A stretch of DNA of 64,000 bases from Candidatus Omnitrophota bacterium (GTDB lineage Bacteria; Omnitrophota; Gorgyraeia; Zapsychrales; Zapsychraceae). Below the pieces are notes generated by a model that was given only the letters and a program-made list of their open reading frames with translations, did not search any database and was not told where the DNA came from. Numbering within the stretch: the stretch's first letter is position 1; the number at the start of each line of letters is the position of its first letter. A program made the translations under genes and the position numbers. The stretch covers positions 132,876 through 196,875 of the forward strand of contig JAJDCB010000030.1 in assembly GCA_029261065.1 (NCBI GenBank), read 5' to 3'. Positions 41,543 through 61,749 of this stretch are shown here, in pieces.

Positions 41543-41568
41543 AGAAAAAAAGAGGAAAAGAGCACATT

Positions 41569-41952: not shown

Positions 41953-41956
41953 AGAT

Positions 41957-42877
41957 ATGGCAAACGTCATTGAAATCCAGGGGTTAAGCAAAAGCTTTGC
42001 AAAGATTCAAACGGTAAAAGATGTGAGTCTCACGATTCCTAGGGGAAGTATTTTTGCTCTTCTAGGTCCTAATGGGGCTGGCAAATCGACAACGATTAAG
42101 ATGTTGATGAATTTTATTCAACCGAATCAAGGAAAAATATCAGTGTTAGGTGTTGATGGGCAGAAACTAGGGCCCAAACAATTAGAACAGATCGGTTATG
42201 TATCGGAAAATCAAGAAATGTTGCCGTGGATGACGGTGGATCAGTTTCTTAAATTTTGCAGCACAATGTATCCAACGTGGAATCAGGGGTATTGTCAGCA
42301 GCTAATGGAGAAGTTTCGCCTGCCGGGGAATCAAAAAATCAAAGATTTATCACGCGGGATGAAGATGAAGGTGGCTTTGATTTCATCTATCGCTTATCGT
42401 CCGCAATTACTTATCTTAGATGAACCGTTTAGCGGCCTTGATCCCCTGGTTCGTGAAGAGTTGATCACAGGGGTTTTAGATCTGACTGAAAATGAAAATT
42501 GGACGATTCTACTTTCTTCACATGATATGGAAGAGGTGGAGCGGTTAGCGGATCATGTCGGTATCATGAATAACGGTGAGCTTGTTTTGAATGAAGAAAT
42601 AGAATCTCTACAACAGCGGTTTCGTCAGATAGAGATCGTGCTAGAACAACCATCTGTCGGTACGATCCCCGAAAAGGATGACTTGTATTTGATAGAGAAT
42701 CAGGATCGTCTCATTCGTTTTGTTGATAGTCAATATCAAGCGCTGCAAAGGGAAGAACTCTATAAGCAACTATTTCCATCGTTAGTAAGCGTGAACGTTA
42801 AGGTGATGACATTAAGAGAAGTCTTTATTGCACTTGCCAAACATTATTCTATTCAAGGATTAAAGGCCGCCTCATGA
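41957..42877 (+). CDS. ABC transporter ATP-binding protein
   Basis: Walker A 'GPNGAGKST', signature 'LSRGMKMKVAL', Walker B 'LILDEP', 306 aa with a C-terminal extension. Confidence 0.9.
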   Translation: MANVIEIQGLSKSFAKIQTVKDVSLTIPRGSIFALLGPNGAGKSTTIKMLMNFIQPNQGKISVLGVDGQKLGPKQLEQIGYVSENQEMLPWMTVDQFLKFCSTMYPTWNQGYCQQLMEKFRLPGNQKIKDLSRGMKMKVALISSIAYRPQLLILDEPFSGLDPLVREELITGVLDLTENENWTILLSSHDMEEVERLADHVGIMNNGELVLNEEIESLQQRFRQIEIVLEQPSVGTIPEKDDLYLIENQDRLIRFVDSQYQALQREELYKQLFPSLVSVNVKVMTLREVFIALAKHYSIQGLKAAS

Positions 42878-42934
42878 AATGGGCGAGCCTCGTCATTTTT
42901 ATGAAAATAAAGAGACAACGACGGGAGAAATAGT

Positions 42935-44683
42935 ATGGCCATGGTTTTTCAAATATTGAAAAAAGATGTGTATCGATTACGGATGTGGATCTTTGTTTGG
43001 TTCGTTTTTCTGGGTTTGCAAATGGTGTTGGGGTTGAAGGCGACACATTTATCTATTCATAATTTATATTTTCAATTATCTTTGCCTATGATTTTTGGGG
43101 TTGTTGGTATCTCACAGATTTTGCTTATGGCCATTATCATTTCTTTTCTTATCCACGAGGATGCTTTAGTAGGTACAACATCTTTCTGGATGTCTCGTCC
43201 CATTGCTCGGTCATCTTTATTCATGTCAAAATTTACGTTTGTGTGTTTAGTACTAATCTTGCCTTCTCTTATTATGGAGATGATCGTATTGGCAGCTAAT
43301 CATTTTAGCTTCCAACTTCTTTTATTAGGTGTTCCTGAAATTTTACTAGAGAAATTAATTCTGATCGTTCCTTTGATGGTTTTAGCCTCTGTAACCATTC
43401 GATTATCACAATATACGTTTATTGGTATTAGTTTTTTGTTTGTCTATGTGCTCCTGATGCCAGGTATGGTACATAGTAGTATTTTTTTGCCAATATTTCG
43501 AACACACAGTTTCACACATTATGTGGATATCACTACATTTCATTTTTATTCGTTACGTTTGTCTTCTCAGTTAATTGCCCAAATTTTATTTTTAATACTA
43601 AGTATGATAGTACTCATTCATCAATTTTTGACGCGACGTACAAAAAGAACATTTTGTTTTATTGTTATTGCCTTTGTGATGGCTAATGGTGTTGGTTATC
43701 AATGGAAGATTGATTTTTTGAAAGAGAATTCCTCTAAACAAGTTCAAGAAGTTGTGGATCCCGTTATTAAGGTTTCTCTGGATTTAAATCATGTTTTTAT
43801 CGATAACATGCCTAGAGCGGGGGCCAAGGCTAAGAAGATAAAAGTTATCCAAGTTAAACAAGACGTTAAAGGTCTTTCAGACAAATATTTAACGTTTTTA
43901 AAAGAAACAAAGAATGCTCGCATGATTTACGATGATGGGTTCACTCTAACATCTGAAACAATGGGTGCCAGAATTTCAAAAGATTCCTATGGAGATTACA
44001 GAATTATGAAGTCTTTACAAATCGTTTTGAAAGATTATGAATTGATGAATCCTTTTGAGAAAGAATTTTCATATTCACATATTTTTCAACTTCCCGAACA
44101 AACATTTAATCTTCATAAAGGTAAAATTGGACGGTTTGAGGCGCGATTAATTTACGATATCTATGAATATCAACTAGACGTAGCCCTTTCAGCTAAAGCT
44201 TTTCAAAGATACTCTAATAATTCAGAAGATTTAGCCATTTTAGATGTAAACAAACGTCAGGATGGGGTTACGATTTTTGTTGTTGAGAAAAATAGTAACT
44301 TTTTATTCGATAGAAGCAAACCTTATGTTAGTCAAGGGTATCACGATATGCTGTCAGCTAATAGTTTTGAGCAAGTGTATTTACTGCGCAATAAACGTTT
44401 GAAACAAGCCTATTTGGCAGAAATATCTAATGATAGGATTGTTTTAAATCAGAATGTTATGCGGTCACATTCACAACGGATGACGCAAAAAATTAAACCC
44501 CTAGATTTTCTTCACATCAATGAACGCAATGAAGATATGCCTGTGATTGATGAGGATTGGTTGAAAGATGCTGAACTGATACGGTTACGTGCAAAGAAAG
44601 TTGGTTCTGTAGAGAAGGATGTTTCATATTCAAGATTTTACTTGCCAGCTCAATCAAGCGAGCTTAAGGCAAGGGGGAAGTAA
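42935..44683 (+). CDS. ABC-2-type transporter permease with a large C-terminal extracytoplasmic domain
   Basis: It has about 6 N-terminal TM helices and a ~330-aa soluble C-terminal region, and is co-operonic with the ATPase. Confidence 0.6.
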   Translation: MAMVFQILKKDVYRLRMWIFVWFVFLGLQMVLGLKATHLSIHNLYFQLSLPMIFGVVGISQILLMAIIISFLIHEDALVGTTSFWMSRPIARSSLFMSKFTFVCLVLILPSLIMEMIVLAANHFSFQLLLLGVPEILLEKLILIVPLMVLASVTIRLSQYTFIGISFLFVYVLLMPGMVHSSIFLPIFRTHSFTHYVDITTFHFYSLRLSSQLIAQILFLILSMIVLIHQFLTRRTKRTFCFIVIAFVMANGVGYQWKIDFLKENSSKQVQEVVDPVIKVSLDLNHVFIDNMPRAGAKAKKIKVIQVKQDVKGLSDKYLTFLKETKNARMIYDDGFTLTSETMGARISKDSYGDYRIMKSLQIVLKDYELMNPFEKEFSYSHIFQLPEQTFNLHKGKIGRFEARLIYDIYEYQLDVALSAKAFQRYSNNSEDLAILDVNKRQDGVTIFVVEKNSNFLFDRSKPYVSQGYHDMLSANSFEQVYLLRNKRLKQAYLAEISNDRIVLNQNVMRSHSQRMTQKIKPLDFLHINERNEDMPVIDEDWLKDAELIRLRAKKVGSVEKDVSYSRFYLPAQSSELKARGK

Positions 44684-44701
44684 GGGAAGGAGGGGGTAAA
44701 G

Positions 44702-44887
44702 ATGATGTTAAATCAAATGTCTGATGAAAAATTAATAGAAAAAGTTAATACTTTAGAAGAGGCCGAGCGCCGCGTTTATTTAGAATTAAAAAAGCGCAAA
44801 ATTCCGTTAATTCGTAAGAATGGAAAAGTCATTATTTTGAATCCAGATTCAAAATTATGGTTAAAAAAATATTGTGCGATGCTTTAA
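44702..44887 (+). CDS. Small hypothetical protein (61 aa)
   Basis: An ORF with RBS-like 'ggaggggg' upstream. No family was recognised. Confidence 0.3.
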   Translation: MMLNQMSDEKLIEKVNTLEEAERRVYLELKKRKIPLIRKNGKVIILNPDSKLWLKKYCAML

Positions 44888-44926
44888 TTTTTGTGAATTT
44901 CGCATAAACCTTGAAAGGAAACAAAG

Positions 44927-45973
44927 ATGAGAAAAATATTACTACTTATTATTATGATGGCCATGTCTTTACCGGCTATGGCGCAGGAGATGACGGCACA
45001 GGAGATTGTGCAAAAGGCGAAAGAGAAATATCAATCTATGAAAAGTTACTCTTCAAAGGTTCGTAGTATCTCAGAGGGGGCTATTTCGGGGCGACCATTT
45101 AAGGATTCAAGGAAGGCCGAGGTTATAATGGCTCGTCCTAATCTCTATAAAATTACGTGGAGCAATGTGAAGCCTTATCAAGGGAAGGAAGATGTTGTTT
45201 GGAATAGTGGCGAAGGGGCTTATATGTATAGTTCTATGACGAACGGTTATTCTAAATATAATTCCGATGTTATGATTTTTGGTGCAGCAACAGGGATCTC
45301 TTCAAACGCCACATTAACGATGCCTTCAATCTTTTATGCCTTGCCGGAAATGCCGTCATTTTTTGATTCATTAAAAAAATTGGAATATTTAGGGGTTGAG
45401 AATGTGGCTGGCAAAGATTGTTATAAGTTAAAGGGCAAAACGCTTTATTCATCCGAGCATTATATCTGGATTGAGGTGGGGCAGTTTTTGTTAATTAAAA
45501 ATCAATATGTTCATGATGTTGATTCTTCTATGGCTGAGAAAGTTGAGATGAGCGACGAACAATATGCAGAATCTGTTCGGGCAATGGGGGTTGAGGTGAC
45601 AGATGAGAAAATTGCTTTTATGAAAAAAATGTCTGATTTTGGACAGGAAATGACAGAAAATGTAGAAATAGATTTGCAGCGTAAAGAAATTTTTACAAAT
45701 ATTAAGGTTGATGAGTCGGTTGAGAATTATAATTTTGATTTTAAAGTGCCAGCCAGTGCCAAACTAGAAACTAATTATTTTGATGCAATGTTTTCTGGTG
45801 ATATTGATTTGGATAAGCTCCAAGAATCTCAAGAAGCTCTCATGGAGATGATGGGCAAGGAAGACTTTGATCCAAAGGAAACTCAGAAAATAATGAAAGA
45901 TTTGGAAGATTCAATGAACGTAGATTCAAAGAATGAGAAAAATAAAGAACATATGCAAGATGATGCTTATTAG
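44927..45973 (+). CDS. Secreted LolA-fold-like (outer-membrane lipoprotein carrier/sorting-like) protein with an acidic C-terminal extension
   Basis: Signal peptide 'LLLIIMMAMSLPAMAQE' and an N-terminal pattern 'QEIVQKAKEKYQSMKSYSSKV...PNLYKITW' resembling LolA/LolB/DUF4367-type unclosed barrels. This is a weak assignment. Confidence 0.45.
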   Translation: MRKILLLIIMMAMSLPAMAQEMTAQEIVQKAKEKYQSMKSYSSKVRSISEGAISGRPFKDSRKAEVIMARPNLYKITWSNVKPYQGKEDVVWNSGEGAYMYSSMTNGYSKYNSDVMIFGAATGISSNATLTMPSIFYALPEMPSFFDSLKKLEYLGVENVAGKDCYKLKGKTLYSSEHYIWIEVGQFLLIKNQYVHDVDSSMAEKVEMSDEQYAESVRAMGVEVTDEKIAFMKKMSDFGQEMTENVEIDLQRKEIFTNIKVDESVENYNFDFKVPASAKLETNYFDAMFSGDIDLDKLQESQEALMEMMGKEDFDPKETQKIMKDLEDSMNVDSKNEKNKEHMQDDAY

Positions 45974-45991: not shown

Positions 45992-46813
45992 ATGAGGATA
46001 CGAAATATTACTATTATGGGAGTGTTGTGTTTGCTGCTGACGAGTTTCGCTTCTTCTCAAGAAGTTGTTTCAAACGAGAACGATTCTTCTTTTGAGTTAG
46101 TTGTATTTCCAGCGCAGTTTTTTGAAAATAAAGAGCAGCAGGCTGGAGAACATCATTATTTTGGTGGTCAGACGATATATTTACCGTTTGTGACAAATGG
46201 ATCGAAACCTTCAGTGCTAAAGGTTGAGCTGGTGCAAAAAGCATTTTCGTTAACTGCGCAGTATGAAACAAATGCGCAGGTTGATTTGGATGCAAATCAG
46301 ATTGTCATAGATCTTCCCATTGTTAAAAGAGAAGTTGTATTTGAAATGATCATCAAACAGCAAGACATGACGGAAAAAAGTTGGATGGATGTTGTTCGTG
46401 TTGACATTCATGTCTATCCCAACGATATCCTTAAGCCCATGCAAGAGTGGGCCAAAGAGGTTCAATTGCGGATTAAAGATCGAGAAGGGGTTTTGACGCA
46501 AGTATTGGAGGAAAAAGAAATTGAATATGTCGATTACAGGGCGGCTTACCCTAAGAAGGAAGATATTAAAGCTGTGACGATTGTGGTGGGGGATCCTGAT
46601 GAAAAATTTTTAGAGGAGAAGACGTGGCATGCCACGGAGAGTTTGATTATATTACGCAACAAAGAGGGGGGATTGCCCAAGGTTTTGGTGCGTCCCATTA
46701 AGACGGGGATGTTGATTGACTCTTCAGTGCCCACGGTTGGGAAGCTTAAGAATAATCCGCGAAATCAAAAAATGTTGTTGGAGACCATACGATTATCCAA
46801 CACGCTTAATTAA
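45992..46813 (+). CDS. Hypothetical secreted protein
   Basis: Signal peptide, 273 aa. No family was recognised. Confidence 0.5.
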   Translation: MRIRNITIMGVLCLLLTSFASSQEVVSNENDSSFELVVFPAQFFENKEQQAGEHHYFGGQTIYLPFVTNGSKPSVLKVELVQKAFSLTAQYETNAQVDLDANQIVIDLPIVKREVVFEMIIKQQDMTEKSWMDVVRVDIHVYPNDILKPMQEWAKEVQLRIKDREGVLTQVLEEKEIEYVDYRAAYPKKEDIKAVTIVVGDPDEKFLEEKTWHATESLIILRNKEGGLPKVLVRPIKTGMLIDSSVPTVGKLKNNPRNQKMLLETIRLSNTLN

Positions 46814-46828: not shown

Positions 46829-47863
46829 ATGAAATTAGTCGAAAAAATGAAATGTGTTGTAACGATGATTTTGGTAGGAGGGGTAATGTTAGTGTTCTCA
46901 ACATCATCTTTCGCTCAAGAAGTCGTCAAAGAAAGTGAAGGTGAAAGTAAAAGTGAAGTGGTTACCCCATCTTACACAGTCGCTGTATTACCTTTTGAAG
47001 CCAGCGGCAATGAGTTAAAGGATGTGGCCCCAGAGGTGTCGCTTCTTATGAATACTTGTCTTTCTGGGAAAGATGGGATTGCCTTGGTCGAACGGGACAA
47101 GTTGGATAAAGCGATCTCAGAGATGGAGATTGGGATTTCAGGAACAGTGGATCCCCAAATAGCGGCTCAAATTGGACAAATTACGGGTGCTAAAATTCTG
47201 ATTACAGGTCGCGTGTTTGTTGTCCAGAATGAATTGTTTTTGGTCGCCAAGATTATTGGTTCTGAAACAAGCCAGGTGTTTGCTGAAACAGTTAGTATTT
47301 CTTTTAAAGAGTCTCACGCGGATGCGACGAAACAACTGGCTCAAAAAGTTGCCAGAACAATTGCTGCTAAAGGTGAAACATTAATCGCGAAGAAAAAGCA
47401 AACGCATGATTCTCTGGAAGATTTAAAGTACATGTTAGAAGGACGAGAGAATCTTCCTGTTATTTCTGTAGCCATTATTGAACGTCATGTGAGCCAACTC
47501 ACATTAGATCCTGCGGCAGAAACAGAAATTAATATGACATTAGCCAGTGTCGGCTTCCCCATAGTTGATCCTAATACAACTGTCGAACAACCAGACATTG
47601 AAATTACAGGCGAAGCCTTTAGCGAATTCGGCATGAGAAACGGCAATCTTGTTTCCACCAAAGCACGCGTAGAAGTCAAAGTCATCGAACGCACAACCGG
47701 CAAAATCCTCGCCGTCGATCGCGAAACAGGTGTCGCTGTCGATTTATCCGAACAAATAGCCGGCAAGACAGCCATTCAAGAAGCCGCTAAGAAAATTGCT
47801 ATTCGTATCATTCCAAAGATTGTTGATTCTATGGAAGATTCTAAGGTGTTTGTTTCGGAATAG
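46829..47863 (+). CDS. Secreted protein with tandem CsgG/LpoB-like periplasmic modules
   Basis: Signal peptide, 'SYTVAVLPFEASGNELKD...IALVERDKLDKAISEMEIGISG...GAKILITGRVF' and a second related module 'LPVISVAIIERHVSQL...'. Confidence 0.55.
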   Translation: MKLVEKMKCVVTMILVGGVMLVFSTSSFAQEVVKESEGESKSEVVTPSYTVAVLPFEASGNELKDVAPEVSLLMNTCLSGKDGIALVERDKLDKAISEMEIGISGTVDPQIAAQIGQITGAKILITGRVFVVQNELFLVAKIIGSETSQVFAETVSISFKESHADATKQLAQKVARTIAAKGETLIAKKKQTHDSLEDLKYMLEGRENLPVISVAIIERHVSQLTLDPAAETEINMTLASVGFPIVDPNTTVEQPDIEITGEAFSEFGMRNGNLVSTKARVEVKVIERTTGKILAVDRETGVAVDLSEQIAGKTAIQEAAKKIAIRIIPKIVDSMEDSKVFVSE

Positions 47864-47898
47864 AGGAATTCATGTTTTGTAAAGAGGAGAATAATTAT

Positions 47899-49125
47899 AT
47901 GAATAAGAAAATGATGTTGATATGCCTTATGTGTGCTTTTGTAGGCTGTTTCTTTAATACGAATTATATTCATGCCGCTGATGATCCTTACTTAAATGAT
48001 TTAAGGATAAGAGATCAATATAAAGAAAACATTCATAATCTTTTTGTGCAGGGAGATTTTAATCAGCTCGAACAAATTATGAAGCAAGCCAAAGAACTCA
48101 ATGACAGGTTTGCATCCGGTAGTTTTAAGCTTGATTATTTTTATAGAGGGATCGCATTGAATATTGACGATTTTTATATTGAAGATTTTGATGAACCTAT
48201 TGCTTTGTTAAAAGAATGGATTGAGGAATTCCCAAACTCTGTGACTCCGAAAATTGCGTTGAGTCATATGTATAGGAATCTTGCCTGGAAGCATCGAGGT
48301 TCAACTGTCTCAGCGGATGTCACGGAGAGTGGGTATGATAATTTTAATACTATTTTAGGACAATCAGAAGATCTGCTTAAGGAAGCTCAAAAATTAGATG
48401 ACAAAGATCCAGCTCTTTACGTTGTTTGGATAGGAGTCAATACAGGCTTGGGTGGTTTAAATGCTAAGGACAATGTCTATGACTTAGTTAAAAAGACGAT
48501 GGCAATCGATTCACAATATTACATGTCCTATATTTATGCGTCCACGACACTGTTGCCTCGTTGGCATGGTGATAAAGGGGAGGTAGAAACCTTTGCAGCC
48601 TCCATTGCGGATCAAACCAGTGATGAGATGTATATGCGTATAGCGGTTGCTGTTAGAGAATATACGGGCGAAGATGGTTTTTTAAAATTTAATTTTGATT
48701 GGAAGCGAGTTCATAACGGGTTTAAGGAAGTGCATTCGCAGTATAAAAGTTTGTATTACTTAAACAATTATGCCTGGTATTCCGCTTACGAGAAAGATCA
48801 AGATTTAGCAAAGAGTTTGTTTGCCGTGATTGGCGATAAATGGGACAGCGATGCCCAAAAGTTATGGAAAAGTAAAAAACGATTTGCTGCCTATAAACAC
48901 TGGGCCTCAACAGGTCAAGATTATCCAAAGAAAGAGGTTACGACCAAGAACGGCAAGTACGAAGGTATTTATGAAACGTATGACGATAAAACAAAAAAAA
49001 CAACCATGTGGTTGTATGAAGATGGCAAGTTAAATGGAAATACAAAAGCCTATAATGAAGATGGTTCGATTTATGGATCTTGGATGTATAAAGATGGAGT
49101 ATATGTGGGGCAAGGGCCGTACTAA
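47899..49125 (+). CDS. Hypothetical secreted protein with C-terminal MORN-like repeats. It is a paralogue of 61750..62781.
   Basis: Signal peptide. 'FASGSFKLDYFYRGI' aligns with 'FPSGSWKLDYYYRGL' in the paralogue. The C-terminus 'KNGKYEGIYETYDDKTKKTTMWLYEDGKLNGNTKAYNEDGS' is MORN-like. Confidence 0.55.
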   Translation: MNKKMMLICLMCAFVGCFFNTNYIHAADDPYLNDLRIRDQYKENIHNLFVQGDFNQLEQIMKQAKELNDRFASGSFKLDYFYRGIALNIDDFYIEDFDEPIALLKEWIEEFPNSVTPKIALSHMYRNLAWKHRGSTVSADVTESGYDNFNTILGQSEDLLKEAQKLDDKDPALYVVWIGVNTGLGGLNAKDNVYDLVKKTMAIDSQYYMSYIYASTTLLPRWHGDKGEVETFAASIADQTSDEMYMRIAVAVREYTGEDGFLKFNFDWKRVHNGFKEVHSQYKSLYYLNNYAWYSAYEKDQDLAKSLFAVIGDKWDSDAQKLWKSKKRFAAYKHWASTGQDYPKKEVTTKNGKYEGIYETYDDKTKKTTMWLYEDGKLNGNTKAYNEDGSIYGSWMYKDGVYVGQGPY

Positions 49126-49145: not shown

Positions 49146-52100
49146 ATGAATAAAAATTTTTTATTAACTGTAATCATGTTTATTGGCATCACGTGTTTGT
49201 TGCAACCTGATTTATGCGCGCAGGATGCTCAACAGAAGATTGCGGTTATTAACATTCCACAATCTGATGTCACAACCATGACTGTCGGTCCGTTGGTCGC
49301 GAAGCGGGGGGATCAGGCTTGGTTGAGTAAGGCGATTGCGGATCTTTTGATTAAGAATTTATCTGAGGTGCAGTCTCTTGTGATTCTTGAGCGTGAGCGG
49401 ATGCAGGCCTTTTCGGATGAGGTGGGGTTAACGGATTCGGCGTTATTCAATCAAGAAAAAGCGTTGCGGGTTGGACGTGTGGCCCGTGTGGATCAGGTTG
49501 TTTATGGGAGTTATGAGTTAAAGGGTGGCATAATTACGGTATCCATTTTTTTGATGGATTTGGAAACTCAAAATATTGTACTGACAGATCAGATTTCAGG
49601 TTCTTATGATCAACTGCGTTCTTTGATGAAACAATTGGTATTTCGGTTTCTTCAAGAGAAGCAGGTGGTGTTAAGTGAGGTGGAGAAGAAAAATATTCAG
49701 TTTCAAGTGACGGATTCCATTACAGCCACGGAGTATTTTTATCGCGGAGTTGACTCTTATGATCAAGGACAATACCCCGAAGCCTTTGGAAAATTCCTAA
49801 AAGCTTCTCATCAAGATTCAAGTTATGTTGAAGCATTACTTTGGGTAGGACGAATGTTTGAGGCGCAAGGATTTTATAATCATGCAGTGATTGCGTATCA
49901 AAAACTCTATGATTCTTATCCGCAAAGTGTTGAAGGGCGTGATGCGTTATTGTTCGCGGGGAAGGTCTTGGAATTTAAGCTGGAAGATTTTAAACGCGCG
50001 GTGGATACCTACCGTAGTCTAACAGCCATCAAACCCGTTAATCCCCACAGTTTGTATGCATCATTTCGATTAGGCCATGTGTTACAAAAGCAGGGAGATG
50101 CATTAGAAGCCTATCATCATTTTCAAAAGATTGATGATTTTCGTGAGAGCTGGAATAAAGGTTCTGCCCGTATTTTAAAGAATAATCAACGCACATCACG
50201 TTTTGTCAGTTGGCGAGAAGTGTTAGCTCTTTATAAAGAATCTATTGTGTCTATGATTTCCGTTTACAAAAATCTTTTGAATCAAAATCAACTTGAAAAT
50301 ATTCCAAAACCACCTCGAGGTGTGATCGTTTTAGATGCGGATAATCCAGTATTTGAAGAAAACGTTTTTGATCACACGCCTTCTTTATTTCCTAATGAAC
50401 AGGACCGTGCAACTTGGAGGGAAAGAATTTATGTTGTGATTGTTCCAAAAGGGAGGAGAGCCGTGGGAGTTGACTTTAGTATTACAGGCCAAATTCAGGC
50501 GATGAACCCAGGTTATGATTATACAATGCGTATTCTTCCCTTTCCATTACCAAGAGATTTTGATCGTTATTGGTATGGTGTCATCTTTGGTCAAACAAGA
50601 GAGAAAACAACATTGCGAAAATCTGTTTCGTTTTTTGGGGATCAATTGGATGTGTTTGCCATTCAATTGATAGAAAATCCGTCCAAGATTTTTGATTGGA
50701 GGTTAAAAGCCAAATTAATTAATGAGAGTGATGTCGATGATGATACAGAGGTTGTCGAAGTTGTAGAAAAAGAGGAGTTCTGGGAAGGCAAGCCGTTGGC
50801 GCAAATTCCTTTGCAAGGAAATAAATTGGCAGGAGCCACCCGTTTGTTGCAACAGGCGTGGTATCAGTCGAAGAAGGAATTGGATATCTTGTATGATCCA
50901 GCAAGTGGTTATCATTTGGTTGTGACGCAAGGTGAGATTGATGGGGAACAAATAGATTTGTGGTATGCACATAGTCAAGACGGAGTGGTGTGGTCGGATT
51001 TAGAGAGACTTGATATTAATTCTTCGAGTGAAGAATTTAATCCTCGCCTATTACGCGCAGAGGATGGGCGTATTCATTTGGCATGGAATTCAAACAGACA
51101 AGGAAATGGGTGGGAGTTGTGGATGAGTTCATTGAACGATAATAAAACGTGGGCAAGTCCTCATCGCATTGCATTAGAAAAGATTGCGGAGTCTGGTATG
51201 GAGAAAAGAAGATCGAGCATGATGTATGATCTTCTAGATTATGATCTCCTTCAAGATATCCGTGGTCAATGGATTTTGGCTTATTATTCGTATGATGCGC
51301 ATGCCATGGTGTTGTTAAAATCTTTAGATACCAAAGATTGGAGTCATCTAGCTAGCGTGCCTACAAAAGGAGCTTATGGAGCTTCGCTTACTCAGGATAG
51401 TTCTGGCGTTTACCGTTTAGGTTTTGTTGGTCATGGCGGAAAAATTTATCTTTTAAGTTCCAATGATGCCATTGATTGGCATACGCGTCCGATTAAAATT
51501 AGTTTTTGGAATCAGTCATTTTCTCCTACCCCTACCATTCATCGCATGCGTTTGTTTCCTTTGGAAATAGGAAATCTGTTGATGTTAATTTCCGATAATC
51601 AATACGGTTTGCAATTTGCTCGTTTTCAAGCAGACACCGAAGACCCTGTTTTAGACTTAGTTAGTCGTGTTGGTCTTCAACCTTATGGCGTAGCACGCAT
51701 GGGTCCTAACAATTATTTAGTTGCCATAAAAGAAGATGAAGAAATCATTTTGAAACAATACAAAAAGTTTAATGTTAGTGGGAAGGAAATTAAAAAAGAT
51801 ACGCGCAATTGGCCAATCTATGAGGAGACAGAAAAAGATGCAGAAGGTCATGTTTGGACACGTACGTTTGCCCAAGAGCGACGCCGTGTATCAGATGTGA
51901 CCGCATTGGGTCTTGAAGCAAACGGTCGTTTGTGGTGGGGGATTGAGACGGGGGTTATGTATAAACATGGCCAACACTTTTATGCGACGGATGTTTCTTT
52001 AGGGTTCTTTTATCATTTCGTCACCGATATTACGAGTTGTTCGGATGAACGTGTTTGGTTTTCCTCACATTTTTTAAATAAACCAGAATTAGGTGTTATT

Positions 52101-52787
52101 CAACAAAGACACATTAAACCAAACGGGCGGCCTCGTATTGCAACGGTGATGGTTCCAGAAGTGCGTGGTGCTATTACGGATGTCACGTGTGGCCTAAATG
52201 AAGATCATCTTTATGTAGGGACATCTAAAGGAAACATCGTTGGATTTAATGGCAAAGATATTTTTTGGAATGAGATTTTAGAGCTTGATGATTATGTCAC
52301 GGCGTTAGACTATAACAAAAAGACGAGGGACCTTTGGGTGGGGACAAAATCAAACGGCGTTTATCAATATCATAATGGAAAGCTTAAACAACATTTTTAT
52401 TTAAGATATGGTTTGCCTTCAAACGAAGTCGCTGACCTTGTTGTTGATCAACAAGGAACGGTGTGGGTCGCTCTTTATGGAAATGGTCTTATGCAATATA
52501 AAAAGGGTGAGTGGTATCAATTTACACCGAACAATTCGCATGTGTTGTATTGGTCTATGAATCATTTGGCAGCTGATAGTAAAAAAGGGATTTGGTATTT
52601 GCCACACGATGATGTTAGGTCAAAAGGTTTAGGTTTTTTTGATGGGGCCAAATTTGAGACATATAACCCACCGCATCATATTTTACCAAGCCCGAGTTCC
52701 TTAGTTGTCTCCCCAAAAGGAACGGTGTGGGTTGGAACGTGGTTTGAAGGAGTTTATCAATTAGAAAGGAAAGCAGGCACGCGATGA
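49146..52787 (+). CDS. Large (1213 aa) secreted protein: CsgG-like module, TPR, BNR/Asp-box-like propeller and C-terminal Reg_prop-like beta-propeller repeats
   Basis: Signal peptide. 'QKIAVINIPQSD...LVILERERMQAFSDEVGL'. TPR 'YFYRGVDSYDQGQYPEAFGKFLKA'. Asp-box-like 'SQDGVVWS', 'NDNKTWAS', 'SNDAIDWHT'. Propeller repeats 'TRDLWVGTKSNGVYQYHNGKLKQHF...GTVWVALYGNGLMQYKKGEWYQF'. Confidence 0.7.
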   Translation: MNKNFLLTVIMFIGITCLLQPDLCAQDAQQKIAVINIPQSDVTTMTVGPLVAKRGDQAWLSKAIADLLIKNLSEVQSLVILERERMQAFSDEVGLTDSALFNQEKALRVGRVARVDQVVYGSYELKGGIITVSIFLMDLETQNIVLTDQISGSYDQLRSLMKQLVFRFLQEKQVVLSEVEKKNIQFQVTDSITATEYFYRGVDSYDQGQYPEAFGKFLKASHQDSSYVEALLWVGRMFEAQGFYNHAVIAYQKLYDSYPQSVEGRDALLFAGKVLEFKLEDFKRAVDTYRSLTAIKPVNPHSLYASFRLGHVLQKQGDALEAYHHFQKIDDFRESWNKGSARILKNNQRTSRFVSWREVLALYKESIVSMISVYKNLLNQNQLENIPKPPRGVIVLDADNPVFEENVFDHTPSLFPNEQDRATWRERIYVVIVPKGRRAVGVDFSITGQIQAMNPGYDYTMRILPFPLPRDFDRYWYGVIFGQTREKTTLRKSVSFFGDQLDVFAIQLIENPSKIFDWRLKAKLINESDVDDDTEVVEVVEKEEFWEGKPLAQIPLQGNKLAGATRLLQQAWYQSKKELDILYDPASGYHLVVTQGEIDGEQIDLWYAHSQDGVVWSDLERLDINSSSEEFNPRLLRAEDGRIHLAWNSNRQGNGWELWMSSLNDNKTWASPHRIALEKIAESGMEKRRSSMMYDLLDYDLLQDIRGQWILAYYSYDAHAMVLLKSLDTKDWSHLASVPTKGAYGASLTQDSSGVYRLGFVGHGGKIYLLSSNDAIDWHTRPIKISFWNQSFSPTPTIHRMRLFPLEIGNLLMLISDNQYGLQFARFQADTEDPVLDLVSRVGLQPYGVARMGPNNYLVAIKEDEEIILKQYKKFNVSGKEIKKDTRNWPIYEETEKDAEGHVWTRTFAQERRRVSDVTALGLEANGRLWWGIETGVMYKHGQHFYATDVSLGFFYHFVTDITSCSDERVWFSSHFLNKPELGVIQQRHIKPNGRPRIATVMVPEVRGAITDVTCGLNEDHLYVGTSKGNIVGFNGKDIFWNEILELDDYVTALDYNKKTRDLWVGTKSNGVYQYHNGKLKQHFYLRYGLPSNEVADLVVDQQGTVWVALYGNGLMQYKKGEWYQFTPNNSHVLYWSMNHLAADSKKGIWYLPHDDVRSKGLGFFDGAKFETYNPPHHILPSPSSLVVSPKGTVWVGTWFEGVYQLERKAGTR

Positions 52788-53602
52788 GAAAGTTTATTTT
52801 TATGATAGGCGTGTTGGCGTTGTTGATACCAACACAAGGTTTAGCGGATAGTAAAGAGAAGCCCGTGATTGTGATTATTCCTTTTGAGAATGCGACAGGA
52901 AAAGAGGCGTATGAATCTCTATCGACAGGCCTGCCTGATTTGTTAACTGCTTTTCTTTCTCCCTATGATGAGAGGGTAACGATCATTGATCGAGGTTTAT
53001 TAGAATCGGTCTTCTCAGAGAAAAGTTTATCATGGGAAGGTTTTACCAGCGAGAAATCTTGGACGCAGTTAGGTCAGTTATCTCAAGCCGATTATATTTT
53101 ACGGGGAAGCGTGTTATTTTCAGATAATAAATTTACGATTAATGCATCACTTTATGAGCTCGAGTCCACACAGTTGTTAAAAGCATTTGAAAGTTATGGG
53201 AGCTCAAAAAATTTATCTCATCTTGTTCAAAAGATAACAGTACAATTAGCCGAATATTTAAAAACAGATATCAAATTAATTGAGGATCTCCCCATCGATG
53301 ATAACCCTGAGAAAAGTTTTAATTTTATATCAGGAGTTGGATATTATTACAACGGTCAGTTTGAGTTGGCGTTAACATATTTTATGAAAGTTTTGGAATC
53401 GCATCCTGATGATGAATTAGCACAATATTGGTTGGCTAAAACTTTTCAAGAGGCAGGGATGGTGGATCATGCGCAATTGGAGTTTAGGGTGTTTTTAAAG
53501 AAACATCCTAAGAGTGAAAAATTTTCAGAGGTTAAAGGTTATCTCATTATCCCAAAAGAAGAAAAGGAGAAGGGGCATGAAGAAGTTAAAGTTACCGATT
53601 AA
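52784..53602 (+). CDS. Secreted CsgG/LpoB-like module fused to a TPR domain
   Basis: Signal peptide. 'KPVIVIIPFENATGKEAYESLSTGLPDLLTAFLSPYDERVTIIDRGLLESVFSEKSL'. The C-terminal TPR 'YYYNGQFELALTYFMKVLESHPDDELAQYWLAKTFQEAG'. Confidence 0.6.
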   Translation: MRKFIFMIGVLALLIPTQGLADSKEKPVIVIIPFENATGKEAYESLSTGLPDLLTAFLSPYDERVTIIDRGLLESVFSEKSLSWEGFTSEKSWTQLGQLSQADYILRGSVLFSDNKFTINASLYELESTQLLKAFESYGSSKNLSHLVQKITVQLAEYLKTDIKLIEDLPIDDNPEKSFNFISGVGYYYNGQFELALTYFMKVLESHPDDELAQYWLAKTFQEAGMVDHAQLEFRVFLKKHPKSEKFSEVKGYLIIPKEEKEKGHEEVKVTD

Positions 53603-54236
53603 TTTTGCTTTGCTGGGCTTATTTACAGGAGAAATTTTGATTCTTGGAGCTCTTATATTTGTATCGATATTTGTTAATCCTACTGAAGCATCCTGGCCTC
53701 CTCAAAAGGGAGAAGTTTTTCCTAATGTTGAATTTATTGATCAAAAGGGGAATAAAACATTTATGTCGGAGTTTAAAGGAGATGTTGTGTTGGTCGAGTA
53801 TGTTGGTATGAATTGTCCAGCTTGCCAGGCTTTTTCTGGTGGTAATGATCCAGCCATTGGTCCTTATCAGAATAATGCTTTGCAAAAAGGTCTGCCATCC
53901 ATTGAAAAATTACTTCCTAAGTATTCTGGAGGTGTTGGCCTTTCTGATAAAAGAATTACGTATGTGGCGATACTGCTCTATGACATGTCATTAAAGGATA
54001 CGAATTCTGATGAAGCGGCTCAGTGGGCGAAGCATTTTCGATTTAATCGGGAGGAAAAGGAAGTTGTTCTTGTTCCGGTTAAAGATTTACGCGGCAATGC
54101 CAGTTTTAACTTAATCCCGGGATTTTGTGTGTTAGATAAAAATTTAGTTGTCCGCTCAGAGAGCGCCGGACATCACCCAAAAGAAAATCTTTATACCGAG
54201 ACGTTACCAATGGTGGGGAGGCTGATCAATGAATAG
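53574..54236 (+). CDS. Secreted thiol-disulfide oxidoreductase (redoxin/TlpA-like thioredoxin fold, CPAC motif)
   Basis: 'GEVFPNVEFIDQKGNKTFMSEFKGDVVLVEYVGMNCPACQAF'. The start was set at the ATG with RBS aaggag, overlapping the upstream gene by 29 nt. Confidence 0.6.
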   Translation, partial: GMKKLKLPINFALLGLFTGEILILGALIFVSIFVNPTEASWPPQKGEVFPNVEFIDQKGNKTFMSEFKGDVVLVEYVGMNCPACQAFSGGNDPAIGPYQNNALQKGLPSIEKLLPKYSGGVGLSDKRITYVAILLYDMSLKDTNSDEAAQWAKHFRFNREEKEVVLVPVKDLRGNASFNLIPGFCVLDKNLVVRSESAGHHPKENLYTETLPMVGRLINE

Positions 54237-54771
54237 AGTTGTCGTCACAAGTTTTATTTTAATCATTTCGTCATTTGTTGTTTCTTTTAGCAACGCTTGG
54301 GCGTTAAGCGTAGAAGAAGCGTACAGGGCCATTCCTCATCAAAGAACTCTTTTTAATGAAGATAAAGCTAAGATGTCTTTGACAGAGAAAGAATTCTTAG
54401 ATGAATTTTTTGCCCTAACAGACTTAGCTGTTATCCAACGTGTTGAATTGCTTTTATGGACCACAACCCATGGCAAGAAGGGAAAAAATTCAAAGAATTA
54501 CGATAATATCCTCTCGCAATTAGAAGATTTAAATGAGCCAACGAATTTGAGGGAAGTGCATCAATTAATTATTGGCGCCATCAAAGATCAGCAATCTTTT
54601 TATCAAGAGTGGGATAAACAATATAAAAGTCTCCCGTCACACCCAAAAGTTCGTAGCGCTAGTCAGAAATTACGACAAGCCTACAGTATTCTCATGCGAC
54701 TTTATCCACAGGAAGGCCCGCATAATAAGGCTGCCTTATTTGATCATTTGTGTGCGTTGGATTTTTTGTAG
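54229..54771 (+). CDS. Hypothetical secreted protein
   Basis: Signal peptide 'VVVTSFILIISSFVVSFSNAWA', 180 aa. Confidence 0.45.
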   Translation: MNRVVVTSFILIISSFVVSFSNAWALSVEEAYRAIPHQRTLFNEDKAKMSLTEKEFLDEFFALTDLAVIQRVELLLWTTTHGKKGKNSKNYDNILSQLEDLNEPTNLREVHQLIIGAIKDQQSFYQEWDKQYKSLPSHPKVRSASQKLRQAYSILMRLYPQEGPHNKAALFDHLCALDFL

Positions 54772-54799: not shown

Positions 54800-57700
54800 A
54801 TGTTAATGAAGTATTTTAAATTCAAAATTCCATTCTTTGTTGTGTGTGCCTTATTTTGCATGCAGAACGTATGGATTGCAAACTCAGAAGCGAATTTAGA
54901 TAAGGTCAGAACTGTTGCGATAGTTCCAGGGGTTCTGGATAAAGCTCCTTCCGAGTTGTTATTAGTTAAGATGGAGGAGGCTTTATCGCATTTAGATCAA
55001 GTGCGTTTATTAGAGAGGGCGCAGGTTTATAAGGTTTTAGATGAGCGAGAGCTTAGATTGTCCGGACTTGTCGATGATAATCGGGCGTTGGGTGGGTGGT
55101 TATCGGCGAGTTTGATGGTATTTGTTGAGAAGCTGCCGGATGCCCAAGATGCGGTGATTCGTATCCGTGTCGTTGAAAGTGAGACAGGAATTATTATGAG
55201 TTCGGCATTACACTTAGCTAGCGCGTTAACGCAGGATATTAATGTTGTCATAGAACTGCTACAAAAGGCGATTGATAAAAATAATGTGCCTTTAGAAGAT
55301 AGGGTGTATGTAAGTGTATTAGGGTTTGAGAGTGAAGAGTTAGGAACATCATTAGATGGTCTTGCGCGTGCTTTGACGTTATTTGTAACACATGATTTAG
55401 CGAGTTTGGATAAGGTTATTGTTCTTGAACGGGAGCAGGTAGCACATCTTAATAGTGAACAAGAGTGGATGGGGTTAAATTTGAGGTTAAAGGGTTCGGG
55501 TGTTTTGATAGAGGGGGGTTTAAGTTATTCAGTGGGAAAGAAGGAAGAGGTAAATGTGGATGTCGTACTAAGGCCCACTGGTGGCGGGGACAGGCAACAA
55601 ATGTCTTTAGTGATGAAGCCAAAAGATGTTTCTTTGTTGCGCCAAGGGCTTCTTGACTTTGTTCGTCAGAAATTAGATATACAGTCTTCAAAAGATTTTA
55701 CTGCTAATCCGAAGCAAGAAGGGGCGATGTTTTTATCCCAGATTCCATTTTTGATGTCAATCGGTGACTATGAAACAGCTGTTCAAAATGCAGAGGTGGC
55801 TTATGCGTTATTAGGGAATCAAGAGTCAAGGTATTGGGCTGCGCGAGCCTGGTATCTTTTGGGAAGAACGTTTGCTAAAGATTTTAAAACGACATTGTGG
55901 CACCCTGGTTGGTCTAATGTTGGGTATTCTATAAGTGTCGCCCATATTAAAAGAGAAGATTTTTATGTTAATATCACGAGAGACAGTAGTATATCAAGAT
56001 CTGGTTATTCCTCTGCAAATCCGAATCGAGGTTATGATTTACCAAATGACGATAAGGTTCGCGCCTTGTTAGCTATCAGTCGGTGTTATAACTTTATCCA
56101 TCAGATGCTTCGTGTGCATATAGATCAATTTGCACAAGGCCAGGTAACGGAGATTGAGTTTCCAGATCCTCTCAAATCTAAAATACTACCAACATTGCCT
56201 GTTTATGGAAGGGATGATCGTAAGTTGACATATGAGGTATTGGGCGAATCAGATAGTTTTATGAAATATTACGAACAGATTATTGATATGGAATTAGAGC
56301 AGCATAAAATGTTGAGCACCTTTTACGGTAAACATTACGATCATTCAAAGAAAGCAAAATATTTGTATTGGACATCTTGGATGCGAAGAAAAAATACACT
56401 TAACCGTTATTATGGAAGTAGTGATGAGTATCTTATGGCGTATATGGTCGATGCTGTTAAAAGTTTTATATTGCTTCCTAAGGATGATGATATAAAGTTT
56501 GATGCCTTAAGAAAAATGATCAAACCTCATGGTCGTATTTTAGATAAGCAGAAGAAACTTTATGGGGATTTGCTTCATCATAAAAGCCCTGATGCCCGTA
56601 AAATGGGGAAAATAATGTTTAAGTTGCTTGAGCGCAAAGAAGAATCTCGGGGGACTTGGTCTCAGGGAAAAACGCAGCGTAGTGGTGCAAAGAAAACAAC
56701 AGCTGCTTCTGTTTCAAAGAACAATAAAAGCTTTGGCAAATACAAAATTGATAGTTTTGGTCCTATTGGAAAGCAGGTCTCAATGGAGTCGCTCTATATT
56801 AACTGGAGCAATTCTCTTTTTGGTGAGGGAAAGCCCATCATGAATAATATTTGTATGGATGGAACAGCCCTTTATTATTTTGAAACATTTAAAGTTTCTA
56901 AAACGTCATTCAAAGTTGTTGCCCATAAACATGATTTTTCAAAAAGTAATGATTATCAAAAATTAGGTGAGGCCATTATTAATGTGCGTAAAACAGATCC
57001 AAAAATGATAACGGCATGTGCGGTGGGTAAGGATTATGTTTATGTTGGGACACCTGGGGGATTAATTGTAGTCCCAAAGGTTCCTGATGAAAAATTAAAT
57101 GTTGTTAAAGTTTTTACGGAAGATAATGGGCTTGCTGATAACAGAATTCTATCGTTAGCTTATCATGGCGAAAAAGTTTATATAGGTGTTGGGCCAACGT
57201 TTGCCAATGAATATGGGTGGGTAGGAAAGTCAGGTCTTGTTGAATTCGATCCAAATAATGCTCGATATAAATTAATCGCAACAAACGGCGCGTTTGAAAA
57301 TGTGGATGGACTTAACGGCGGAGGAAATTATCAAATCTCTGCCATATTAACAGATAAGAAGCGCAATTGTCTTTGGTTAGCTGTTACGGCCAATCAAGAT
57401 CGAAGTGGTATTTGGCGTTATGATTTAAACACAAAGGAGATTAGTCTTGTTGCTAAAGAACATTCAGGTATCAAAGCAATGGCGTGGAGCAGAGCGGATA
57501 TTATTTATCCTTTGTATAACGTAGGGTTAGTTCATTTTGATCCAGACACAAAGAAGAAAACATGGCTTGCCTCAAATGTTAATGCTGAATGGCATAAAGC
57601 TTATAATCAAAAAACTCCTCTTGGAGTAACAGGTGAGCCAACATTTGGATTTCATACAGCACGCTTATGGCCCATGGCCTATGATCAAGATTATGTTTTT

Positions 57701-57892
57701 GCCGTAACTCAAAGGGGGAGTATTTTTGAATTATATAGCAAAAAAAATCTTAAAACCAACTCCAATGGCATTAGCCAAAACGCCGTACCCAGACCAAATT
57801 TTCTAACAAACATTAGCCATGTGATTCATAATCCGTTTGGAGTTTGGGTGGTTAATGATAATGCTCAAGTTTATTTGTTGAGGAGGAAATAA
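54800..57892 (+). CDS. Large (1030 aa) secreted protein, a paralogue of the 1367-aa protein, with two CsgG-like modules, a TPR/helical region and a C-terminal beta-propeller
   Basis: Signal peptide. 'VRTVAIVPGVLDKAPSELLLVKMEEALSHLDQVRLLERAQVYKVLDEREL'. 'VYVSVLGFESEELGTSLDGLARALTLFVTHDLASLDKVIVLEREQVAHL'. The C-terminal region 'ILSLAYHGEKVYIGVGP...GKSGLVEFD...CLWLAVTANQDRSGIWRYDLNTKE' is colinear with the 1367-aa protein. Confidence 0.7.
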   Translation: MLMKYFKFKIPFFVVCALFCMQNVWIANSEANLDKVRTVAIVPGVLDKAPSELLLVKMEEALSHLDQVRLLERAQVYKVLDERELRLSGLVDDNRALGGWLSASLMVFVEKLPDAQDAVIRIRVVESETGIIMSSALHLASALTQDINVVIELLQKAIDKNNVPLEDRVYVSVLGFESEELGTSLDGLARALTLFVTHDLASLDKVIVLEREQVAHLNSEQEWMGLNLRLKGSGVLIEGGLSYSVGKKEEVNVDVVLRPTGGGDRQQMSLVMKPKDVSLLRQGLLDFVRQKLDIQSSKDFTANPKQEGAMFLSQIPFLMSIGDYETAVQNAEVAYALLGNQESRYWAARAWYLLGRTFAKDFKTTLWHPGWSNVGYSISVAHIKREDFYVNITRDSSISRSGYSSANPNRGYDLPNDDKVRALLAISRCYNFIHQMLRVHIDQFAQGQVTEIEFPDPLKSKILPTLPVYGRDDRKLTYEVLGESDSFMKYYEQIIDMELEQHKMLSTFYGKHYDHSKKAKYLYWTSWMRRKNTLNRYYGSSDEYLMAYMVDAVKSFILLPKDDDIKFDALRKMIKPHGRILDKQKKLYGDLLHHKSPDARKMGKIMFKLLERKEESRGTWSQGKTQRSGAKKTTAASVSKNNKSFGKYKIDSFGPIGKQVSMESLYINWSNSLFGEGKPIMNNICMDGTALYYFETFKVSKTSFKVVAHKHDFSKSNDYQKLGEAIINVRKTDPKMITACAVGKDYVYVGTPGGLIVVPKVPDEKLNVVKVFTEDNGLADNRILSLAYHGEKVYIGVGPTFANEYGWVGKSGLVEFDPNNARYKLIATNGAFENVDGLNGGGNYQISAILTDKKRNCLWLAVTANQDRSGIWRYDLNTKEISLVAKEHSGIKAMAWSRADIIYPLYNVGLVHFDPDTKKKTWLASNVNAEWHKAYNQKTPLGVTGEPTFGFHTARLWPMAYDQDYVFAVTQRGSIFELYSKKNLKTNSNGISQNAVPRPNFLTNISHVIHNPFGVWVVNDNAQVYLLRRK

Positions 57893-61710: not shown

Positions 61711-61749
61711 GTGTGTCTTTTAAAAATGTATCAAATTAAGGGGTTGGTA

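Follow-up and report, generated by a model that had tools for sequence, protein, structure and literature searches.

A 1213-residue exported protein with a TolB-N-like domain, a TPR superhelix and two different beta-propellers, encoded in a conserved gene cassette of mostly uncultured bacteria

What might a bacterium do with an exported protein that carries a CsgG-like module, tetratricopeptide repeats (TPRs) and two beta-propellers of different kinds on a single chain? The question is raised by a 1213-residue protein encoded in a 64,000-nucleotide stretch of Candidatus Omnitrophota DNA (GenBank assembly GCA_029261065.1, contig JAJDCB010000030.1, positions 132,876 to 196,875; hereafter the window, with coordinates counted from its first nucleotide). 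An earlier note, made from the sequence alone, had listed these modules, called their combination unusual and taken it to indicate a carbohydrate-recognising surface or periplasmic scaffold. The open reading frame (ORF) lies at 49146-52787 exactly as claimed there and the architecture it described is right; its interpretation is partly supported, the CsgG label having been over-read. An identical protein (P0001) is already deposited, from an NCBI assembly and from the Logan assembly of SRR15505515, where it is automatically annotated and uncharacterised, and we found no paper that combines these domains or describes the gene cassette in which the protein is encoded. The automatic names of its relatives, exo-alpha-sialidase, CsgG/HfaB family protein and TolB-like protein, are incompatible with one another. 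They are echoes at the level of single domains: the first two are unsupported as functions and the third fails as family membership. The reading that we favour, with a probability of about 0.55, is that the protein is a Sec-exported, soluble periplasmic scaffold or receptor, neither an enzyme nor a channel, and the central subunit of an envelope module.

The protein begins with a signal peptide and continues through five domains (Table 1), whose structures were predicted with AlphaFold2 (AF2) separately for the N and the C half of the chain, from 18-19 aligned homologues each. The call that the protein is exported is borne out by the signal-peptide-like N-terminus, and in the model a helix at residues 3-18 is followed by a disordered stretch. 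No conserved lipobox is found in the family alignment, where Cys17 and Cys24 vary and several members have no signal-peptide cysteine at all; since these cysteines are unconserved in the relatives, the protein is not taken to be a lipoprotein. The N half was predicted with a mean confidence (pLDDT) of 82.0 and a predicted TM-score (pTM) of 0.76, and the C half, a 684-residue model of the two propellers whose numbering is offset by 529, with values of 83.5 and 0.82. The high pTM of the latter argues for the two propellers being held in a fixed mutual arrangement. The strings quoted in the earlier note were all placed, SQDGVVWS at residue 610, NDNKTWAS at 664, LDTKDWSH at 727, SNDAIDWHT at 772, GVYQYHNGKL at 1071 and GLMQYKKGEWYQF at 1114. 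Full-length homologues are 32-58% identical to the protein, and 15 full-length members underlie the family counts given below. The fraction of positions held by the majority residue is 0.56-0.65 in all five domains; conservation is thus even along the chain, from which it follows that the whole architecture is selected as one unit. The combination is indeed unusual, the full-length relatives falling into approximately 19 clusters at 90% identity, with approximately 35 representatives at 50% identity reaching E <= 1e-30 among 1.84 billion.

The protein is part of a cassette. Thirteen related loci (numbered with the prefix L) were compared by tblastn and ORF clustering, and in 12 of the 13 the genes for a 273-aa protein, a 344-aa protein, the 1213-aa protein, a 272-aa protein, a thioredoxin-fold protein and a 180-aa protein follow one another in this order on one strand. 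L005 is a partial exception, with the first two genes a few kilobases upstream and inverted and the last two undetected. The flanks of the cassette are unconserved across the 13 loci. The cassette genes of the window are closely packed or overlapping, with 4 nucleotides shared between the stop of the 1213-aa gene and the start of the 272-aa gene, and all of the products begin with segments that resemble signal peptides or membrane anchors. The earlier note did not see this cassette with its two paralogues and thioredoxin, which provides what we consider to be the strongest clue to function.

Two of the partners share the N-terminal module of the 1213-aa protein. The 344-aa protein is the best conserved of the partners, with 41-67% identity in every locus and occasional duplication; from its sequence, its C-terminal half would contain a second TolB-N/CsgG-like domain in addition to the one detected by Pfam (Table 1). 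The 272-aa protein is, from the cross-matches in tblastn, a paralogue of the N-terminal 260 residues of the 1213-aa protein, and its gene is syntenic in every locus whose sequence extends far enough. The thioredoxin-fold partner has a conserved GMxCPACQAF sequence. Weak Redoxin/AhpC-TSA matches are seen in nine of the 13 aligned sequences, and against the PDB the profile matches ResA, TlpA and other thioredoxin-family chains with E values from 3e-4 to 2e-2. While its start is given in Table 1 according to the Logan gene call, the longest ORF begins at 53514. In six of the 13 loci (L002, L003, L004, L006, L010 and L012) this protein is fused to the 180-aa protein, giving chains of 393-532 residues; in the window and in Nitrospinaceae the two genes are separate and overlap. 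The 180-aa protein itself has no Pfam family. Its relatives form 99 clusters, all annotated as hypothetical, with an AYRxIPH sequence conserved besides the C-terminal one, and they also occur alone in unrelated neighbourhoods (L062-L064), which gave no functional lead. Likewise the 273-aa protein has no Pfam, NCBIfam or meaningful PDB match; the PDB candidates, immunoglobulin light chains and the MS2 coat protein, had chance-level scores and were rejected.

In the window a seventh gene, for a 417-aa DUF4034/TPR-like protein, lies between the second and third cassette genes. This insertion is unique to the window, the gene being missing at that position in all 13 loci, and relatives of its product adjoin the cassette in L005 and L010. 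A role of the cassette in anti-phage defence was considered and dropped, as none of eight locus proteins had a match in PADLOC. A scan of 44-64 kb for promoters and terminators gave counts at chance level.

The second propeller is of the Reg_prop type, as had been proposed. Pfam Reg_prop (PF07494) matches it with 30.7 bits against a cut-off of 20.4, and is matched in 14 of the 15 family members, while the family profile finds BT4663 (4a2l, E 5.9e-27), 3v9f (E 1.2e-18), BT4673 (3ott, E 8e-11) and PorZ (5m11, E 1e-4) in the PDB. The AF2 model of this propeller has 29 strands, which fits seven blades and a closure strand, and the W-x-G-T-x-x-G-L motifs of the blades are conserved. Foldseek with the C half against the PDB also returned tandem propellers, including BT4663 (4a2l), BT4673 and an enzyme of glycoside hydrolase family 74. 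Two cysteines of this propeller, Cys965 and Cys1015 (52038-52040 and 52188-52190), co-vary perfectly, both being present in 11 of the 15 homologues and neither in the other four, a pattern which suggests a disulfide that has been lost in some lineages. The idea that the thioredoxin is there solely to service this pair was rejected, since members that have neither cysteine, such as P0007 of L003, retain the thioredoxin.

BT4663 and BT4673 (4a2l, 3ott) and PorZ (5m11) resemble the 1213-aa protein in having seven-bladed Reg_prop propellers arranged in tandem in the cell envelope. Unlike these proteins, however, the 1213-aa protein has a Reg_prop propeller only in second position, the first being of the BNR type, and it lacks the Y_Y_Y domain, the transmembrane helix, the kinase or response-regulator part and the C-terminal domain of the T9SS (type IX secretion system). 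It has, instead, the N-terminal TolB-N-like domain, the TPRs and a beta-sandwich. It is in sensor kinases that Reg_prop propellers are most familiar, and it could be imagined that the protein is a periplasmic co-sensor, with propellers that bind an environmental ligand and signal to a separate histidine kinase or cyclase, in effect a split version of the hybrid two-component sensors (HTCS) of Bacteroides. The match to BT4663 would fit with this, as would the matches of the full protein outside its own family, for those with annotated domains are all Reg_prop proteins and mostly sensor kinases. The N-terminal alpha/beta and helical part also resembles the periplasmic sensor domain of CadC (TM-score 0.51-0.52, target-normalised). 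Furthermore, genes for histidine kinases, for response regulators and for a response-regulator-cyclase are found within a few kilobases of the cassette in L006, L007 and L012, with a hybrid histidine kinase and a response-regulator-cyclase adjoining it in L006, and in L010 and L011 its neighbourhood includes ORFs that BLAST clustering groups with these signalling genes. On the other hand, such genes are not beside the cassette in the window or in the other related loci, and where they do occur their type and orientation vary; signalling genes are common in these genomes anyway. The protein itself has no transmitter domain and, beyond the signal peptide, no transmembrane segment, and it ends right after blade 7. 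None of the Pfam domains HisKA/HATPase, receiver/AraC or Y_Y_Y was found in it, so that it does not belong to the HTCS proteins. We therefore consider a co-sensor to be unlikely.

The first propeller has diverged further. In the AF2 model it consists of six four-stranded blades, with an N-terminal strand, residues 549-555, closing the ring. Four sites that match a loose Asp-box pattern, S.[DN].{3,4}W, occur at residues 610, 662, 726 and 772, where 0.47 would be expected, and none of 2000 shuffles reached four. On the strand map of the model all four lie in the turns between strands 3 and 4 (C-D) of blades 1-4, which is the turn that the Asp-boxes of sialidase-type propellers occupy. An Asp-box-type propeller is thus present as the earlier note had said and its motifs are in the canonical turns, but they are degenerate: none of the four fits S-x-D-x-G-x-x-W, and three of them are one residue short (S-x-D-x-x-x-W). 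Across the family, blades 1, 3 and 4 keep S-x-D-[G/A]-x-x-W, while the site in blade 2 keeps little besides the tryptophan. Pfam BNR_2 matches residues 602-787 with 23.1 bits, under its cut-off of 31.4; of the 15 members, six are matched with E values of 0.01 or lower, down to 9.7e-12. An exhaustive search of the 1.84 billion representatives with residues 386-885 gave 503 matches at E <= 1e-3. Those outside the family matched in multiple stretches, covering blades 1-2, and when ten of them were scanned with Pfam, eight had BNR_2 and/or BNR_4, one Reg_prop only and one nothing. Taking the BNR_2/BNR_4 relatives together with the placement of the motifs and the strand map, propeller 1 is a diverged member of the BNR/sialidase-fold superfamily. 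The outcome that the earlier note had named as speaking against it, an unrelated fold for the C-terminal repeats and no Asp-box propeller, was accordingly not what we observed; the C-terminal repeats are Reg_prop and the Asp-box-type propeller precedes them.

Could the protein then be a periplasmically tethered enzyme, either an active exo-alpha-sialidase or a related glycoside hydrolase? One homologue (P0010) bears the NCBI name exo-alpha-sialidase, the BNR_2 matches reach 9.7e-12 in the family, a six-bladed propeller with Asp-box-like repeats is a feature of glycoside hydrolase family 33, and propeller 1 contains several invariant Arg, Asp and His residues. Against the PDB sequences the propeller-1 profile had a single match, the sialidase NanB (2vw0), in which two motifs of the family align on two Asp-boxes with a one-residue gap each. 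With an E value of 0.41 this match is not significant, and it served as a register anchored on the Asp-boxes and not as proof of homology. Propellers of the NanB type do share the six four-stranded blades and the S-x-D...W in the turns between strands 3 and 4; unlike NanB, propeller 1 has Asp-boxes that are mostly one residue short, and it lacks the FRIP motif. In no member is an F/Y-R-I-P found within residues 545-610, a stretch that is partly disordered in the model, and the sole R-[IV]-P follows the second Asp-box and reads R-I-A in the 1213-aa protein. In this weak alignment (E 0.41) a hydrophobic residue occupies the position of NanB Arg557, which we take to be part of the Arg triad, in each of the 15 members. 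The catalytic glutamate is also absent at the aligned position, with Glu541 of NanB, the general base (PMC6377674), aligned, equally weakly, with Gly or Ser in all 15. Tyr653 and Asp270 of NanB fall outside the aligned stretch, and the comparison of catalytic residues, weak as the alignment is, leans against a sialidase. For the 1213-aa protein the BNR_2 score is below the Pfam cut-off and there is no NCBIfam sialidase match at E <= 0.1. BNR_2 and BNR_4 propellers are, in any case, common among non-enzymes. A sialidase activity would therefore seem very unlikely.

Turning to the N half, Pfam CsgG (PF03783) matches residues 30-122 with 23.7 bits against a cut-off of 20.8, though over positions 10-97 of its 210 only, and there is a CsgG-clan match in all 15 family members. 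The AF2 model of residues 43-171 has the topology beta-alpha-beta-alpha-beta-beta-beta-alpha. Foldseek of the N half against the PDB gave the C-domain of LpoB (4q6z, TM-score 0.60, target-normalised) and the N-domain of TolB (4r40, 3iax, 2ivz), as well as the two-part periplasmic domain of CadC (3ly9) and consensus TPR proteins. A two-layer alpha/beta fold of approximately 130 residues, belonging at the domain level to the TolB-N/LpoB/CsgG clan, is thus supported by both profile and structure. CsgG and the TolB N-domain share one Pfam clan (PMC3173608), which accounts for the CsgG match. Of the CsgG-like module claimed earlier, what stands is the alpha/beta domain of this clan. It is the generic half, of the TolB-N/LpoB type, without the pore-forming part, and it carries no message on curli or secretion.

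These observations bear directly on whether the protein could be an outer-membrane secretion channel of the CsgG/HfaB type, for curli-like or holdfast-anchor proteins. The Pfam match is above its cut-off throughout the family, a partial homologue (P0012) is named CsgG/HfaB family protein and the genes of three CsgG-clan proteins stand side by side. The region of the CsgG profile that includes the transmembrane beta-hairpins is, however, unmatched, and in the AF2 model the alpha/beta domain runs straight into the TPR helices, leaving no space for such hairpins. The best fold matches are to LpoB and the TolB N-domain and not to CsgG. Whereas the fold of residues 43-171 is common to TolB-N, LpoB and CsgG, the protein differs from CsgG in having neither the membrane-spanning half nor the lipid anchor, there being no conserved lipobox cysteine, and it is unlinked to tol-pal, PBP1B or curli genes. 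No genes resembling csgA/B/E/F or hfaA/D were seen among the neighbours in the window, in the additional conserved gene families or in the sampled flanks of the related loci. A channel is largely refuted by this evidence and extremely improbable.

The TPRs were correctly recognised. Pfam TPR_2, TPR_11, TPR_16, TPR_12 and TPR_6 match residues 195-300, and in the AF2 model paired helices extend over residues 178-380 with pLDDT above 90. The NCBIfam matches in this region, to the TPRs of YbgF/CpoB and MamA, are weak. A periplasmic TPR superhelix that serves as an interaction platform is also known from CpoB/YbgF, the TPR arms of PelB/PgaA/BcsC and PorW of the T9SS. The profile similarity to these scaffold proteins is weak and far under their family cut-offs, and the 1213-aa protein differs from them in having no porin, glycosyltransferase or Tol partner. 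Considering the N-domain and the TPRs together, an alternative is that the protein is an envelope-integrity factor in the manner of Tol-Pal or the Lpo proteins, an analogue of TolB, CpoB or LpoB that tethers or coordinates the outer membrane and peptidoglycan through protein contacts and not by binding a free glycan. Two homologues are named TolB-like protein by the Joint Genome Institute, the N-domain is similar in fold to LpoB and to the TolB N-domain, the best specific TPR matches are to YbgF/CpoB (TIGR02795, E 1.1e-7; PDB 6g5s), and an alpha/beta domain followed by a propeller is the overall logic of TolB (PMC12204202). The TPR similarity is nevertheless generic, 32.5 bits against a family cut-off of 90.1, and there are no Pfam matches to the PD40/TolB propeller. 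The genes examined in and around the cassette, in the window and in the related loci, included no tolQRA, pal or penicillin-binding protein genes, and the patchy distribution of the cassette, which resembles that of horizontally transferred genes, is more in keeping with an accessory role than with a core function of the envelope. This alternative appears improbable to about the same degree as the co-sensor.

Between the TPRs and the propellers the model shows a beta-sandwich of approximately 140 residues that was absent from the earlier list of domains. It has nine strands within residues 393-526, with pLDDT 84-97, and the densest set of invariant positions in the protein, 14.2 columns per 100 residues. 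A sub-profile made from the family has no match in Pfam or in the PDB (best E 1.5).

How is this architecture distributed? The hosts, which are known from species-representative genomes and metagenome-assembled genomes (MAGs), include Acidobacteriota, Phycisphaeraceae (Phycisphaerae), other Planctomycetota and Nitrospinaceae, with further MAGs of Methylococcaceae, a proteobacterium (UBA981) and Methylomirabilota. Counted as phyla there are seven groups: Omnitrophota, Acidobacteriota, Planctomycetota, Nitrospinota, Methylomirabilota and Pseudomonadota, and Kiritimatiellia with a variant form. A complete cassette of bacterial type is also present in L006 on a contig binned as the archaeon Nitrosotalea (DATIWG010000081.1), most likely through a binning error. 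The best relatives of the 1213-aa protein, at 56-58% identity, include proteins of Acidobacteriota MAGs, and the Acidobacteriota also hold a relative at 32%, while the CysS encoded in the window is closest, at 63-68% identity, to proteins of named Candidatus Omnitrophota. The family does not track the phylogeny of the organisms, which implies horizontal transfer. A shorter variant of 955-990 residues is found in Planctomycetia and Kiritimatiellia (L022, L024, L026, L029 and L030), with the TolB-N-like, TPR and BNR parts but without the Reg_prop propeller. Where the contigs are longer it is paired with the 272-aa partner, in L022, L024 and L026, and in L024 also with the 344-aa partner. From this variant the core of the wider family is the TolB-N-like domain, the TPRs and the BNR propeller; the Reg_prop propeller was added to this core and marks out the subfamily of the 1213-aa protein.

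On the reading of the protein as a periplasmic scaffold or receptor, the TolB-N/LpoB-type domain and the TPRs would form an assembly end, which probably docks onto the 344-aa and 272-aa paralogues that bear the same module, and perhaps onto the envelope. The beta-sandwich and the pair of BNR and Reg_prop propellers, if these are as rigidly packed as modelled, would form a ligand-binding end. By analogy with BT4663 and PorZ, a glycan or other envelope polymer might be bound on the entry faces of the propellers or in the cleft between them. In BT4663 disaccharides are bound on the entry faces of its propellers (PMC5121618), and PorZ is a precedent for a Reg_prop double propeller as a non-kinase binding protein (PMC5121618, PMC8545088), with A-LPS as its ligand (PMC8545088). 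Because BT4663 binds disaccharides and PorZ carries A-LPS, a glycan or lipoglycan is the most natural guess for the ligand and a plausible one, in line with the idea of the earlier note. The 1213-aa protein would thus be at the centre of a self-contained, horizontally mobile envelope module of five to six genes, which would also supply a TlpA-like thiol-disulfide oxidoreductase anchored in the membrane, together with a small helical partner.

Several observations weigh against this. The statement in the earlier note that both propellers are glycan-binding architectures proved to be a generalisation, as the protein is linked, in the 13 loci, to no glycan-binding residue and to no gene for a carbohydrate-active enzyme or for sugar transport. 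No glycosyltransferase, hydrolase, exporter or sugar transporter is conserved beside the cassette in these loci, so that the ligand could equally well be a protein or a lipid. For the beta-sandwich and for two of the cassette proteins the Pfam and PDB searches brought up no recognisable relatives, and the conserved residues R651, R652, R674, H799 and D817 of the BNR propeller could form an active site.

A bolder extension, which we regard as possible though doubtful, is that the cassette encodes an undescribed mobile periplasmic machine. Its four TolB-N/CsgG-clan domains would form a ring or lattice under the outer membrane, with the twin propeller of the 1213-aa subunit as the receptor for a particular polymer, extracellular or of the envelope, and the oxidoreductase servicing the complex. 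Giant paralogues with TolB-N-like and propeller-like parts would extend the machine in Omnitrophota and Planctomycetia, and it would represent a new class of envelope system and not a variant of Tol-Pal, curli, T9SS or HTCS. The 1213-aa protein itself is built from known kinds of domain, and the interest lies mainly in the conserved and portable cassette, a compact set of exported proteins found in mostly uncultured environmental bacteria. If its products do form a functional complex, this would add a new building plan to the few known periplasmic and outer-membrane assemblies, and would provide a function for the orphan beta-sandwich and for two orphan protein families. In the meantime the annotation is corrected, and at approximately 8 kb the cassette is a tractable target that could be expressed heterologously. 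The coordinates of the protein, its domains and the cassette genes are collected in Table 1.

Table 1. Positions in the window of the 1213-aa protein, its domains and the genes of the cassette, with the basis of each assignment.
Feature	Coordinates	Strand	Basis or remark
ORF of 1213-aa protein	49146..52787	+	ATG start; stop codon included in coordinates
Sec-type signal peptide, residues 1-25, MNKNFLLTVIMFIGITCLLQPDLCA followed by QD	49146..49220	+	Positive n-region, hydrophobic core, cleavage-like site between LCA and Q
TolB-N/LpoB/CsgG-clan alpha/beta domain, residues 43-171	49272..49658	+	Pfam, AF2, Foldseek
TPR superhelix, residues 178-380	49677..50285	+	Pfam, NCBIfam, AF2, Foldseek
Orphan beta-sandwich, residues 390-530	50313..50735	+	AF2, family sub-profile
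Six-bladed BNR (sialidase-superfamily) beta-propeller, residues 549-875	50790..51770	+	Pfam, AF2, distant relatives
Seven-bladed Reg_prop beta-propeller, residues 885-1213	51798..52784	+	Pfam, family profile, AF2, Foldseek
Cassette gene 1, 273-aa exported protein	45992..46813	+	Upstream synteny in 12/13 loci
Cassette gene 2, 344-aa exported TolB-N/CsgG-like protein	46829..47863	+	Pfam CsgG at residues 51-129, 34.4 bits
417-aa DUF4034/TPR-like gene between cassette genes 2 and 3	47872..49125	+	Weak DUF4034 match
Cassette gene 4, 272-aa TolB-N-like and TPR protein	52784..53602	+	Pfam CsgG 28 bits, TPR_6
Cassette gene 5, membrane-anchored TlpA/ResA-like thioredoxin-fold protein, CPAC motif	53577..54236	+	Start per Logan gene call
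Cassette gene 6, 180-aa exported helical protein	54229..54771	+	Conserved C-terminal FDHLCALDF

The window as a whole is a piece of bacterial chromosome, with genes for BamA, an LpxC-FabZ fusion (3240-4568), LysS, a Clp ATPase, RadA, CysS, MetG, Alr and LptF/G. Over positions 1-64000 the content of guanine and cytosine is 35-41% and the GC skew is positive throughout; nearly all of the genes are on the forward strand, and tRNA genes are absent. A module at 41533-45973, which ends 18 nucleotides before the first gene of the cassette and so lies directly upstream, encodes a regulator of the GntR type and an ABC ATPase, along with a 582-aa multi-pass membrane protein that Pfam does not match and a periplasmic protein of the DUF2092 (LolA-like) family. 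Elsewhere this module is unconserved beside the cassette.

Two giant exported proteins are encoded at 54800-57892 (forward strand, 1030 residues) and at 36201-40304 (reverse strand, 1367 residues). They are paralogues, 28% identical in their N-terminal and 25% in their C-terminal parts. In both, tandem TolB-N/CsgG-like motifs are followed by a helical middle and, at the C-terminus, by a region of repeats that look propeller-like, with no significant match in Pfam, NCBIfam or the PDB. In three loci of Planctomycetia (L024, L025 and L030) relatives of the giants adjoin the variant cassette. The convergent neighbour of the gene for the 1367-residue protein, at 34986-36185, encodes a 399-aa protein with a C-terminal thioredoxin domain, the second thioredoxin-fold protein to be found near TolB-N-like giants. 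At 61711-62781 there is a second DUF4034/TPR-like gene, a paralogue of that for the 417-aa protein (47872-49125). Finally, a 163-aa protein without a Pfam family is encoded at 60942-61433, and its homologues recur beside the cassette, in L004 between the 272-aa gene and the thioredoxin and in L007 and L011 upstream but on the other strand; the protein is possibly an accessory component.

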